Shown: piece by piece, positions 2,068 to 5,716 of the stretch
How positions within the stretch are numbered: position 1 is the first letter of the stretch
Layout: every line of letters starts with the position of its first letter
Source of the DNA: an uncultured Patescibacteria group bacterium
GTDB lineage: Bacteria; Patescibacteriota; Microgenomatia; UBA10105; UBA927
Length of the DNA: 64,000 bases
Assembly: GCA_937921305.1 (NCBI GenBank)
Contig: CAKZSU010000006.1
Location: 70,646 to 134,645, forward strand
Direction: 5' to 3'
Notes under the pieces: generated by a model
Database searches by the model: none
Told to the model about the DNA's origin: nothing
Seen by the model: the letters and a program-made list of their open reading frames with translations, nothing else
Translations under genes and position numbers: made by a program

Positions 2068-3203
2068 AAGCTTATGCCCAATCCTTTCTCCAAAAATAGT
2101 GTAGCAATTGCCTCTGGTGTTCCAATTTCTTTATACCGTTTATACCCAGCATGAGCCAATCGTTCTCTTGTTTTTGGCGATCGAGCCAAGCGAAGAATCG
2201 CTTTCGCAAGCGATGTTGGATCTTCCGTCGGACACAAAAGGAGATCTGTATTATGTCTAAACAGAGAACGAATTATCGGTCTATCGGCGGTAATAAGCGG
2301 TTTTCTGCAAGCCAACGCGGCAAAGACTTTGTTTGGAATAACACGTTCAAACAACGGACTTTTTGAAAATACACCAAGAAGAACATCCGCCTTCTGAATA
2401 CGCTTTACTAATTCAACTTCAGGAAGAAAACCAACAAAACGAATATTTTGTAATTTTTCCTTTTTTGCAAAGGCGATCAAATCATCTTTTAAGTATCCGT
2501 CCCCAAGCATGGTAAATACAATATCTCTCTGATTTCGTAACATCTTGGCCGCTTCTAAGATAACTAGAGCGCCATGCATTGGATTATATAAACCAAAAAA
2601 TAGGACATCGATCTTCTCAGATGAACAACGTTTTCCATTGAATGGAAAATAGATTGCATCGTTTGCACCAAGAGGAACTGTGAACAATTTCTTTGGCGAC
2701 ACACGAAGTTCCTTGATAAGAAATTCTCTCATACCATCAGTATCAACAAATACTTTGTTTGGAAGCTTAAGAAGTAATGATTCAACATTTTTCACAAATC
2801 TAGCCTTGAATGAAGATTTATCAGCAATACCTCTCCCAATAAACATCGTGTCATAAAGAGAAAGGCTTGAATCAAACAATAATTGCTTACCAAATATCTT
2901 TGTTAAAAGACATGCAAAAGGAAGCTCTACGTGCCCAGGATGTAACACAATAACAGCATGAGACTTTGAAATCTTCCAAGATTGTAAAAGAAGACGAAAA
3001 AGAGAAAACGTTTTTCTTTGTAATCGATGAACTGTTTTCCAAAGCGTAAAATCTTCAGGAAGCTCCATTCGTTCATTAGGAATTTCCTCATGAATTTCAA
3101 TGATATGTGCTCCAAGGCGATGCAACCCCTCACGAAGAGTGCTTGTTCGAGCGTAGTGTTTGTTATACATGCCAAAAAAACAAATGGTTATATTAATTTT
3201 CAT
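2064..3203 (-). CDS. Glycosyltransferase family 4 (GT-B fold)
   Basis: 379-aa ORF with GT-B-like organisation (RFVGFLPEVELVKRIQKADVLLGV, ALACRKPLITADRP). 4-nt overlaps with flanking genes. Confidence 0.7.
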   Translation of the reverse strand: MKINITICFFGMYNKHYARTSTLREGLHRLGAHIIEIHEEIPNERMELPEDFTLWKTVHRLQRKTFSLFRLLLQSWKISKSHAVIVLHPGHVELPFACLLTKIFGKQLLFDSSLSLYDTMFIGRGIADKSSFKARFVKNVESLLLKLPNKVFVDTDGMREFLIKELRVSPKKLFTVPLGANDAIYFPFNGKRCSSEKIDVLFFGLYNPMHGALVILEAAKMLRNQRDIVFTMLGDGYLKDDLIAFAKKEKLQNIRFVGFLPEVELVKRIQKADVLLGVFSKSPLFERVIPNKVFAALACRKPLITADRPIIRSLFRHNTDLLLCPTEDPTSLAKAILRLARSPKTRERLAHAGYKRYKEIGTPEAIATLFLEKGLGISL

Positions 3204-5716
3204 ACTGCTTCTACTTCAGAAAATGCTGGAGATCGTTTTGAAAAAGAAATAGTCGTGCTTTGTTCGTTCCTTGCTTGCTTCCATGAAGAAGATTCAGAAA
3301 TGACAGCATCTATATAGTTTAAGAATGCTGATGCTGTTTTATCCCAATCAAATTGTTTTGCCCATGCAAGACATAATTGCTCCATGTCTTTTCTATATTG
3401 CCTATTCGCAATAAGCTTAGAAATCGCTTTAGAAAATGCATCAATATCGCCATATGGAACAAGGACACCTGTCTTTCCATGAACAACAGAATCTCGAAGC
3501 CCAGGTACATTCGAAGCAACAACAGGAGTACCACACGCGTTTGCCTCAATTGTCGTAATACCCCACCCCTCCAGACGAGAGGGATGAACACATACCCACG
3601 CGCGTTGATACAAAGAAATTTTTTCTTCTTCTGAAACCTTTCCTCGAAACTCTATATAGGATGAGGCACGCAATCGATGAACGAGACTCAAAAGTCTTTT
3701 TTTATCGTCTCCATCACCAGCTATCACAAATTTCGCTGATAAATATCGACGATGAATACGTATCGCAGTTTTAATAAAAACATCAAGGGATTTGTATCGC
3801 TTTAACCGTCCAACATAAATAATTAATAGGTACTTTGATTTTTTTCCTGGTCTATATTTTACGCTATCTATTCCACTCGGGATTACTGTTATTCCTTTTC
3901 CGGTTATACCCCATTGAGTCATATCTTTTTTTGTAGAAGGAGAAACAGCAATAAATGGAATATCTTTGTATACCAATGGCATACATCGATTTTCTAAAAT
4001 CCTGGCAAGTAATGCGAACGGAGGAGATAAATGAGATCGAAACACTTCTTGATGCACATGATGGACAAGACAGATAATCTGCTCTTTTGCATACAATGGT
4101 GTGAAAAATGGAACACCGTTATGACAATCAATAATGACATCATATCTTCCTCGAAATTTCTTCAGGTAATACAAAAATGCCCAAAGGTAAACAAAATAAA
4201 ATCCCCCTCGACGAATCACCTCAATTCCATCAATATATTCATTTCTTGGAGAGATACTGTCATTGCCGCAAAAAATTGTAACAACGTGTCCATCATTCAC
4301 CCAACGCTTTGCTACTTCATGAATATATACCTCTGCTCCACCGGCATAAACATGTCGCATATCTCGCCAATTCATAATCAAAATACGTTTCTTTCCTTTC
4401 TTTACTTTCGCTTCTTTCTTTTTTGGAGAAAAAATATCTAAAAGATCAACAAGATTTCTTAAAATAAATCGCCCATTTCGCTGAAGAACATGAATCAGAG
4501 AAACAAGAAAAAAATGCATTGTGCTTACAAGAAACAATATCCTAACAATAGAAGCGATATTGCTGTGAAAAAATAAAACACCAAAAACAAAAACCAAAGA
4601 AGATAAGAAAGGAATGAAAGAAATAGAGTAATGATTCCTTGCAATATGATATAACACAATAAAAGATGAAATTGTATAAAGTGTAATCGCCAGCGCGTAC
4701 TCGATAAGATACGGCAACACAACAAAAACTTTATTGCCAAACAATAATAGCAACGTAAATTGCCCAAGTAAACCAATGATTAAAAATGCAAACACAGAGA
4801 GAAGAACAACAAACATAAGAAATCGATAAAATGTCTTTTGGGGGTCTCGCTCATTCGCAATATCTTGGGATACATATGTCAACACAAACCCATTCAACAA
4901 CGATCCAAAGAAGAAAATCATTTTTCCAACCAACGACAAAAACGCGTATTGACCGGCGGAAACAGGATCTAAATAATGCTTTGCAAGCATTACATCAAAC
5001 GAAAGAAATGTCGTGATTGACAGTCCGGAAATCAAAGATGTAAAAAACAACCTTTTCGAAAATCGATATGATACAACAGCGTTTTTCCTGCTTGTCAAAA
5101 CTCGATAAAAAAACATTAAAGACGCAATAAGAGCAATGCTAACGCTCAATGGAATTGCAACGTAAGTATATGTGTAGAAAGGAGAATTGCTAAATATAAT
5201 ACCCAACATTACCTTTACTAAAGATTCAAGCGCGATAAAAAATCCTGCAATGCCGAATGCCGAAACCCCGACAAAATAACCACGAATAGAAAACAAAAAC
5301 GATCCAAAGAAAAACGCAGGAGTAATATGCCACAAAACTAGTGGCGAGACATGAAAAAAATAGGAAAGGAATGGAACAAATATAATCCAAAGAAAAGAAA
5401 AGATACCTACAAATATGAATGTTCTTTTTAAGAGATGGTGCATAAATCCGCTTGAAGCTTGATTGCCTTCTCTCGTATGCAAAAACGCCACACGATGATT
5501 CACCGTCGTCGCCAACGCACCCAAAGGAATATTCATAAGATTCCATATCGTCACAACAAGCGTTACCAGACCAAAATCTTCAAACGAAAGGACTCTTCCT
5601 AAATACGCGTTAAACACAAAATTACAGAAATTTGCAAATAAGAGAGAGAAAATAAAAATACTACTATTAGAAATAAAAAATGAGTATAATGAACGAAAAC
5701 GCATATAGCATATCAA
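3200..5716 (-). CDS. Fusion protein: N-terminal Wzx/MOP-family polysaccharide flippase-like multi-TM domain (~430 aa) + C-terminal GT4 glycosyltransferase domain (~400 aa)
   Basis: 838-aa ORF. The N-terminal half is polytopic and hydrophobic, with Wzx-like features (FANFCNFVFNAYLGRVLSFEDFGLVTLVV). A lysine-rich linker (SPKKKEAKVKKGKK) separates the halves. The C-terminal half carries GT4 signatures (RLEGWGITTIEANACGTPVVASNVPGLRDSVVHGKTG). Confidence 0.7.
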   Translation of the reverse strand: MICYMRFRSLYSFFISNSSIFIFSLLFANFCNFVFNAYLGRVLSFEDFGLVTLVVTIWNLMNIPLGALATTVNHRVAFLHTREGNQASSGFMHHLLKRTFIFVGIFSFLWIIFVPFLSYFFHVSPLVLWHITPAFFFGSFLFSIRGYFVGVSAFGIAGFFIALESLVKVMLGIIFSNSPFYTYTYVAIPLSVSIALIASLMFFYRVLTSRKNAVVSYRFSKRLFFTSLISGLSITTFLSFDVMLAKHYLDPVSAGQYAFLSLVGKMIFFFGSLLNGFVLTYVSQDIANERDPQKTFYRFLMFVVLLSVFAFLIIGLLGQFTLLLLFGNKVFVVLPYLIEYALAITLYTISSFIVLYHIARNHYSISFIPFLSSLVFVFGVLFFHSNIASIVRILFLVSTMHFFLVSLIHVLQRNGRFILRNLVDLLDIFSPKKKEAKVKKGKKRILIMNWRDMRHVYAGGAEVYIHEVAKRWVNDGHVVTIFCGNDSISPRNEYIDGIEVIRRGGFYFVYLWAFLYYLKKFRGRYDVIIDCHNGVPFFTPLYAKEQIICLVHHVHQEVFRSHLSPPFALLARILENRCMPLVYKDIPFIAVSPSTKKDMTQWGITGKGITVIPSGIDSVKYRPGKKSKYLLIIYVGRLKRYKSLDVFIKTAIRIHRRYLSAKFVIAGDGDDKKRLLSLVHRLRASSYIEFRGKVSEEEKISLYQRAWVCVHPSRLEGWGITTIEANACGTPVVASNVPGLRDSVVHGKTGVLVPYGDIDAFSKAISKLIANRQYRKDMEQLCLAWAKQFDWDKTASAFLNYIDAVISESSSWKQARNEQSTTISFSKRSPAFSEVEAV

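Follow-up and report, generated by a model that had tools for sequence, protein, structure and literature searches.

A MOP/Wzx-like membrane domain fused to a GT4 glycosyltransferase in a Patescibacteria glycan gene cluster

Wzx flippases of the MOP superfamily act on O-units or enterobacterial common antigen; the first Wzx structure, that of Escherichia coli WzxE (PDB 9G95), was reported in 2025 without bound substrate (PMC11706664). WzxE has a central cavity that is formed by transmembrane (TM) helices TM1-2 and TM7-8 together with parts of TM4 and TM10, and an essential basic C-terminal tail lies at its cytoplasmic entrance (PMC11706664). In this study, a 64,000-nucleotide stretch of contig CAKZSU010000006.1 from an uncultured Patescibacteria bacterium (hereafter the window) was analyzed, in which one gene encodes a Wzx-like membrane domain of the MOP superfamily joined in a single chain to a glycosyltransferase (GT) of family GT4; such a fusion fixes the two partners one to one. 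The neighbouring upstream gene encodes two GT2 modules, here called D1 and D2, and in many related genomes all four modules form one protein of about 1,560 amino acids.

Several described systems resemble parts of this arrangement. The protein resembles WzxE in a PST family signal (in its relatives), a glycan-gene context, conserved basic and polar residues in TM1, TM7 and TM8, and a stretch of basic residues that follows TM12. However, Wzx proteins stand alone whereas this one is covalently fused to a GT, its sequence identity to WzxE is about 12-13%, and no phosphoglycosyltransferase (PGT), Wzy or Wzz partners were found at the locus. In Haloferax volcanii, the MOP-like proteins AglR and Agl15 have been proposed as flippases in glycosylation based on dolichyl phosphate (Dol-P) with AglJ and AglS, and AglJ primes on polyprenyl monophosphate (PMC3871713). 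Both there and here, a MOP/Wzx-like putative flippase occurs with GT2 enzymes like polyprenyl-phosphate-sugar synthases (AglJ and AglD there), with cytoplasmic GTs and with a transferase (AglS there) that would act outside on polyprenyl-phosphate sugars, and we propose that priming by a GT2 instead of a PGT is also common to the two. The Haloferax system differs in being archaeal, in consisting of separate proteins, in having the oligosaccharyltransferase AglB, of which no counterpart was identified at this locus, and in lacking a PgaC-like module.

Fusions of synthase and flippase like MprF/PplT (bioRxiv 10.1101/2022.03.11.483950) are alike in that a lipid-modifying enzyme, GT-A and GT-B enzymes included, is fused to the flippase of its product, although the flippase fold there (PplT) is unrelated to MOP and the substrates are phospholipids. 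Three-component systems (GtrB/GtrA/Gtr*, ArnC/ArnEF/ArnT, PgfS; PMC11127046) likewise hold a GT2 polyprenyl-phosphate-sugar synthase, which D1 resembles, and a GT-C enzyme in one cluster; their flippase, however, is a small 4-TM protein, whereas the sole flippase-like module seen here, the MOP domain, has 12 TM helices and is joined to GTs. The 'MATE' flippase of that same work (PMC11127046) was considered as a MOP precedent and rejected, being 4-TM and EmrE/ArnE-like. The processive GT2 synthases PgaC, IcaA and BcsA share with D2 the motifs D, DxD, TED and QxxRW and flanking TM helices, and a polysaccharide deacetylase is encoded in 20 related loci; D2 differs in being fused to the MOP domain and two other GTs, in the lack of visible PgaD, IcaD or BcsB partners, and in its score on TIGR03937 (114 bits against a cut-off of 422), by which it is not an equivalog. 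Mycobacterial MurJ/MviN (Rv3910) is a MOP flippase of lipid II with the 14-TM MurJ fold and a C-terminal cytoplasmic pseudokinase domain. It also carries a large cytoplasmic domain on the MOP C-terminus, but its partner is regulatory and not catalytic.

The fused protein and its two halves

The mechanical open reading frame (ORF) 3200..5716 (-) is present in the window and starts with TTG at 5716. Its first in-frame ATG, at 5704, gives the N-terminus MRFRS and a protein as long as the public gene call of identical sequence (P0001). An earlier sequence-only reading of this stretch had claimed a covalent fusion of a Wzx-type flippase fold to a GT4 domain, and both Pfam and the fold comparison agree with it. 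That reading had also named two findings that would count against the fusion, a missed stop or frameshift near the Lys-rich linker (~4400-4440) and an N-terminal half belonging to a non-flippase transporter family. Neither a stop nor a frameshift was found when the linker was read, the frame being open throughout, and by sequence the N-terminal half matches no such family.

The fusion is far beyond chance. In a homolog alignment, the linker residues D420, P427, K439 and R440 are conserved, and the junction with these residues is shared by 39 full-length homologs. It is modelled with confidence in a full-length AlphaFold2 model (mean pLDDT 89.5, pTM 0.72). The same protein occurs, identical, on contigs of three samples, and a contig of a Logan assembly from a sequencing run equals the window base for base. 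A frameshift or stop hidden in the linker was rejected on the grounds of the open frame, the conserved junction and the identical protein in independent assemblies. The fusion was sought in related genomes, as the sequence-only reading had suggested, and was found widely: a database search gave 192 homologs, with identities of 41-60% among the 120 listed and nearly all covering >90% of the query, and when each species was represented by one genome, a relative turned up in 260 of those scanned. Where carriers are named they are almost all Patescibacteria (Roizman-, Levy-, Gottesman-, Woese-, Doudna-, Falkow-, Moran-, Giovannoni- and Paceibacteria); the titles 'uncultured Gammaproteobacteria/Bdellovibrionales' on many related loci were judged unreliable and were not used for taxonomy. 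The architecture, which had been called unusual, is so only by comparison with model bacteria, and in Patescibacteria it is routine. The domain pair is already visible in databases, since IMG auto-names some members 'glycosyltransferase.../O-antigen/teichoic acid export membrane protein'. A literature search found no paper on a MOP-GT fusion or on this cassette; the component families are all known, and the covalent architecture, the four-module form above all, and the pathway logic are apparently undescribed as far as could be found.

The N-terminal half contains about 12 TM helices (hydropathy and model), with an amphipathic helix (411-425) at its C-terminal end. The full-length fold search was dominated by GT4 matches, and the TM domain was hence modelled separately (pLDDT 88.7, pTM 0.85). 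This model matches MOP-superfamily structures only, with Foldseek TM-scores of 0.72-0.76 to MATE transporters, WzxE (9g95) and MurJ, and its 12 helices form the two pseudo-symmetric 6-TM bundles of that superfamily (TCDB 2.A.66; Pfam clan MviN_MATE; 12 or 14 TM helices). As modelled, the fold of this half is MOP. Within the superfamily, family matches in 23 close relatives place the domain, as far as sequence can, on the PST/Wzx side: PF01943 is found in 11 (best 4e-10) and PF13440 in four (best 6.6e-10), MatE is found in two, and the stand-alone relative P0121 passes both PF01943 and PF13440. Profile matching of the TM domain to PDB sequences returned G-protein-coupled receptors only, which were rejected as spurious matches of hydrophobic composition.

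Polar and charged residues are strongly conserved within this membrane domain. Those in TM1 (N25/N28/N32/R37), TM5 (E160/K164), TM7 (D237/K242/H243), TM8 (Y253/K261) and TM10 (K325) are invariant or near-invariant among 40 homologs, and K/R141 is also conserved. R37, K/R141, K164, K242, K261 and K325 are candidates for lining a cationic cavity like that of WzxE (Arg/Lys in TM1-2 and TM7-8), and the basic stretch 409-440 is a candidate for its basic C-terminal tail. The RNGRFILRN...K/R linker after TM12 resembles the WzxE tail in the place that it would occupy, a likeness at the level of whole segments. Basic residues also stand at the N-terminus and in the central loop 205-218 as well as after the last helix; these positive-inside charges, the even TM count and the known topology of MOP proteins point to both termini being inside, which would place the GT4 domain in the cytoplasm, as had been predicted.

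The C-terminal half was confirmed as a GT4 enzyme by Pfam, motif and homolog alignment. Its two Rossmann-like domains, Glyco_transf_4 (PF13439, residues 455-613, E 2.1e-20) and Glycos_transf_1 (PF00534, residues 619-775, E 8.5e-42), are accompanied by the E-x7-E motif on which the sequence-only reading had relied (EGWGITTIE, E712...E720, nt 3545-3571), both glutamates of which are invariant in 40 sequences. The best PDB fold matches of the full-length model are the retaining GT-B enzymes MshA, sucrose-phosphate synthase, BshA, PimB', PglA and PimA (Foldseek, GT4 against MshA 3c4q: TMt 0.80, E 6.5e-17). Since its NCBIfam matches all lie far below the equivalog cut-offs, no donor or acceptor can be named for this domain. 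An aromatic helix, RRGGFYFVY (residues 498-506), is invariant and is a possible membrane-surface anchor.

When a profile of the TM domain was compared with 1.84 billion representative proteins, 977 were matched at E<1e-30. The architectures among the top matches (for example P0126, P0128, P0143, P0149, P0204, P0135 and P0170) comprise stand-alone MOP (~420 aa), MOP-GT2 (~730 aa), MOP-GT4 (~800 aa), MOP-GT2-GT4 (1,105 aa), MOP-GT4-GNAT (1,195 aa), MOP-APH/GrpB (APH kinase-like, 955 aa) and the four-module form. The repeated joining of the MOP C-terminus to varied sugar-adding or sugar-modifying enzymes fits a takeover of the product of whichever enzyme is attached, and it also agrees with a flippase of carrier lipids whose cytoplasmic GT partners vary.

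The four-module form and the gene cluster

The sequence-only reading had placed the fused gene at the head of its unit. This position was not upheld, because the protein encoded upstream is fused to MOP-GT4 in many relatives. D1 is a GT2 module like the polyprenyl-phosphate-sugar synthases ArnC (5.7e-28), PgfS (9.4e-24) and AglJ (2.9e-16), its scores on ArnC and PgfS both being below the cut-offs. D2 is a membrane-embedded GT2 module like PgaC/IcaA (TIGR03937, 6e-33) and CelA. With the motifs DAED, TED (as TEDCD) and QRSRW, and with two TM helices before and about four after the catalytic domain, it has the make-up of a processive GT2 synthase (D, DxD, TED, Q(R/Q)xRW and flanking TM helices). 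Over its residues 199-719, the 753-aa protein shares 58% identity with the first 520 aa of a longer fusion protein (P0011), and about one-third of the listed homologs, with lengths of 1,100-1,430 aa, contain extra GT2 domains.

The stop-to-stop ORF around the MOP domain was measured in 80 related loci, 70 of which are complete. It is at least 1,480 aa long (D1-D2-MOP-GT4) in 38 loci, 1,300-1,450 aa (D2-MOP-GT4) in seven and about 800 aa (MOP-GT4) in 25; in 11 loci it is cut by contig ends and is not assessable. GT2 modules are thus fused in front of MOP-GT4 in 45 of the 70 complete loci, the full form of about 1,560 aa accounting for 38 of these (a 1,556-aa ORF from Roizmanbacteria, L007 7682-12352, is one four-module homolog), and wherever upstream DNA is available D1 and D2 directly precede MOP-GT4, in the same order, in almost every locus. 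By this comparison the 834-aa protein appears to be the C-terminal half of a four-module enzyme widespread in Patescibacteria, which in the window is split into two genes. Two loci have still longer stop-to-stop ORFs (L036, 7745-13471, 1,908 aa; L062, 5452-10722, 1,756 aa), which suggests that they carry further fused modules.

The split form of the window is unusual, with 2.9 kb of foreign-looking DNA between the halves (Table 1). This island has a lower GC content than its flanks (~36%), and none of its ORFs exceeds 131 aa. Two genes persist in it as frameshifted remnants: one for a pyruvyl transferase, the pieces being collinear with the family hidden Markov model over three frames from 8593 to 7545, and one for a PMT-like GT-C protein, a paralog of the downstream 540-aa gene product, at 7478-6813 (34% identity, E 2e-29) and 6251-6060. 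Against two near-identical assemblies it shows single-T indels at 8021 and 6555, and five of the 12 single-nucleotide polymorphisms relative to L001 fall inside it. It looks like a decaying alternative glycan cassette.

Table 1. Coordinates and extent of the features of the cluster (positions in the window unless L001 is given)
Feature	Position	Strand	Remarks
Fused MOP/Wzx-like + GT4 gene	3200..5704	(-)	834 aa; likely start ATG 5704
MOP/PST-type domain	4409..5704	(-)	Residues 1-432
Basic linker, predicted cytoplasmic	4385..4480	(-)	Residues 409-440; RNGRFILRN...KKKEAKVKKGKKR; in frame
GT4 (retaining GT-B) domain	3305..4384	(-)	Residues 441-800
Promoter-like site	5753..5781	(-)	TTGACT-17-TAGTAT, TG-extended; ~50 nt upstream of ATG 5704; count of such sites not above chance level
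AT-rich island	5717..8593	(-)	2.9 kb; 24% GC; splits the unit
Two-module GT2-GT2 gene	8594..10855	(-)	753 aa; D1 + D2
GT4 gene	2064..3203	(-)	379 aa; 4-nt overlap with fused gene
GT4 gene	958..2067	(-)	369 aa; 4-nt overlap
GT2 gene	59..961	(-)	300 aa; 4-nt overlap
Pyruvyl transferase, CsaB/WcaK-like	L001, after GT2 gene		406 aa; coupled
Two polytopic GT-C-like proteins	L001, after pyruvyl transferase		524 and 540 aa; coupled
DRL/SAF oxidoreductase, then apiosidase-like protein	L001, after GT-C pair		412 aa, then 399 aa

Downstream of the fused gene, the two GT4 genes and one GT2 gene overlap in ATGA fashion. The sequence-only reading had described the 4-nt overlaps and counted a coupled operon of four genes. 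The overlaps stand, but the number is an effect of the window edge: beyond window position 1, on the same contig (L001), the chain of 4-nt overlaps runs through three more genes, giving at least seven coupled genes, two of them for PMT-like GT-C proteins. The continuation past the window edge spans L001 15643-22494. The 524- and 540-aa proteins have no Pfam match of their own, and their profiles found nothing among PDB sequences. Among 25 orthologs of the 540-aa protein (family G7), PMT_2 is found in five (best 1e-9) and PMT in three; among 25 of the 524-aa protein (family G6), PMT is found in two and a TMEM260-like match in two. Judging by these matches, which occur in a minority of each family, the two are probably GT-C enzymes that act at the outer face with polyprenyl-phosphate-sugar donors.

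Gene families present in at least seven of 80 related loci (L004-L083) were surveyed with ORFs of at least 120 aa, and the context is exclusively glycan-related in all 80. Behind the cassette come GT4 and GT2 genes in varying sets, with the GT-C pair further downstream in most loci (41-48 of 80). Recurrent neighbours are a protein with a CarboxypepD_reg domain, which directly follows the GT-C pair (27 loci), the polysaccharide deacetylase mentioned above, an NAD epimerase (14), a sortase encoded directly upstream of D1 (13), a PIG-L deacetylase (11) and sugar-nucleotide enzymes.

A proposed mechanism and its alternatives

In the scheme that we favour, the attached GTs would assemble a saccharide on a lipid, which the MOP module would flip and the GT-C enzymes would finish outside; we give this proposal about an even chance of being right. 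The three catalytic GT domains would face the cytoplasm, and the lipid carrier in the membrane on which they build would most likely be polyprenyl phosphate, with D1 doing the priming. It is simplest to assume that D1 primes on polyprenyl monophosphate, because no PGT was found at the cluster and D1 resembles a polyprenyl-phosphate-sugar synthase. The fused GT4 may work at the membrane surface beside the cytoplasmic entrance of the MOP cavity, and the MOP module would then, in the manner of Wzx, use alternating access to bring the saccharide on its lipid to the outer leaflet, after which the GT-C enzymes would transfer or extend it outside the membrane. The fusion would fix the stoichiometry and pass what the attached GT makes straight to the flippase. 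This proposal is supported by the PST-type signal in relatives, the conserved intramembrane residues, the identity of the GT4 domain and the conservation of the fusion, as well as by the Rosetta-stone link to D1-D2, the varied GT partners of the MOP domain, the downstream GT-C genes and the likeness of D1 to ArnC, PgfS and AglJ; AglR and Agl15 of Haloferax serve as a precedent.

Several points weigh against this scheme. The query itself scores only 20-22 bits on PF01943, below the Pfam gathering cut-off of 28.2, and structure alone does not separate Wzx proteins from MATE drug exporters. No PGT, Wzy/O-antigen ligase or Wzz was found in the scanned cluster genes of the contig or in the conserved-neighbour families, nor among the larger scanned genes of the window, the rest of the genome lying outside the search; the set that marks a Wzx/Wzy-dependent pathway (an initiating PGT, Wzy and a chain-length regulator) is not seen at the cluster. 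The suggestion of the sequence-only reading that the attached GT adds the last sugar found no support, and with that set unseen the channelling of a finished repeat unit straight into export becomes one hypothesis among several. Finally, D2 resembles a processive synthase. Such synthases export their own polymer and need no flippase, and D2, whose place in the scheme is awkward, is its least explained piece.

A fuller version of the scheme treats the four-module protein as a self-contained machine that would prime, elongate and flip, with priming by a GT2 without a PGT, extension by GT2 and GT4, flipping by the MOP module, and attachment or extension at the surface by PMT-like GT-C enzymes. 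We regard this version as rather unlikely. If it were true, it would amount to a bacterial pathway built on the archaeal or eukaryotic style of Dol-P logic, or on that of lipoglycans like phosphatidylinositol mannosides (PIM) and glycosylphosphatidylinositol (GPI), and many Patescibacteria might use it as their main route to envelope glycans. These bacteria are episymbionts whose envelope mediates contact with the host. The cassette, present in at least 260 species-level genomes, would offer a first handle on their surface glycans, and the four-module form, with its ~1,560 aa, is attractive for cryo-EM and reconstitution.

Among the alternatives, the best placed, which we consider rather unlikely, is that the MOP domain flips a polyprenyl-phosphate monosaccharide made by D1, as a donor with which the PMT-like GT-C enzymes decorate a polymer or protein, while GT4 serves another step. 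The resemblance of D1 to the undecaprenyl-phosphate and Dol-P sugar synthases ArnC, PgfS and AglJ speaks for it, as do the two GT-C proteins conserved downstream; D2 could make the polymer that is decorated, AglR has been proposed for Dol-P-mannose, and the general logic is that of three-component systems (PMC11127046). No small GtrA/SMR-type flippase was seen among the conserved neighbours, which also speaks for it, but a GtrA-like gene could have been missed by a survey of ORFs of at least 120 aa. The known flippases of such systems are, however, small 4-TM proteins, and the consistent fusion of the MOP C-terminus to a cytoplasmic GT4 or GT2, not to D1 alone, would be left unexplained.

It is improbable that the acceptor is a glycerolipid. 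Here a MshA/PimA-like GT4 would glycosylate a phospholipid or diacylglycerol of the inner leaflet, the MOP domain would flip it, and GT-C enzymes would extend it with polyprenyl-phosphate sugars from D1 into a lipoglycan. The PIM/lipoarabinomannan (LAM) and GPI pathways combine a DPM1-like GT2, a GT4 and a PMT-like GT-C, and the gene set of the cluster mirrors this logic. MshA, BshA, PimB' and PimA are among the best matches of the GT4 domain, which also has weak NCBIfam matches to glycolipid synthases, and the PIG-L-family deacetylase of 11 related loci would fit. However, the GT4 scores are far under every equivalog cut-off and do not discriminate acceptors, the cluster of the window has no PIG-L gene, and glycerolipid flipping is not known for MOP proteins.

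A role of the MOP domain other than flipping, either to anchor the GTs in the membrane or serve them as a scaffold, or as a MATE-like small-molecule exporter fused by chance, is very unlikely, because buried polar and charged residues are strongly conserved in the 40 homologs and the glycan context is uniform in all 80 loci. The match of the structure to MATE exporters, as good as that to WzxE, and the query's own PST score under threshold would allow it, but the PST families are matched by 11 and four of the 23 relatives and MatE by just two, and a 12-TM anchor would be extravagant in such small genomes. That two genes were joined by a sequencing or assembly error can be practically discounted: all that could be said for it is that an indel might in principle go unseen in the A-rich linker, whereas assemblies from three samples give one and the same protein, the junction is kept in the 39 aligned homologs and modelled confidently by AlphaFold2, and full-length matches are found in 192 proteins and 260 species genomes.

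Other features of the window

An Rfam scan of the window gave one tRNA only. At 12630-13508 (-), a 292-aa protein is encoded that has a signal-peptide-like N-terminus, a long Pro/Thr/Ser-rich repeat (PLPTLTPTPLPTLTPIPKPT...), a C-terminal TM anchor and no Pfam match. Its gene overlaps that of a PcsB-like M23 peptidase by 4 nt, with FtsX and FtsE genes further upstream (13505-16261), and the protein is a candidate for an O-glycosylated surface protein. At 11599-12012 (+), between fur and tsaE and diverging from the GT2-GT2 gene, lies a VanZ-family ORF (PF04892, 1.3e-15) that was not called by the public gene caller and shares 79 nt with the tsaE ORF. An association of VanZ domains with MviN_MATE flippases and with genes for exopolysaccharides has been reported (PMC12419801).

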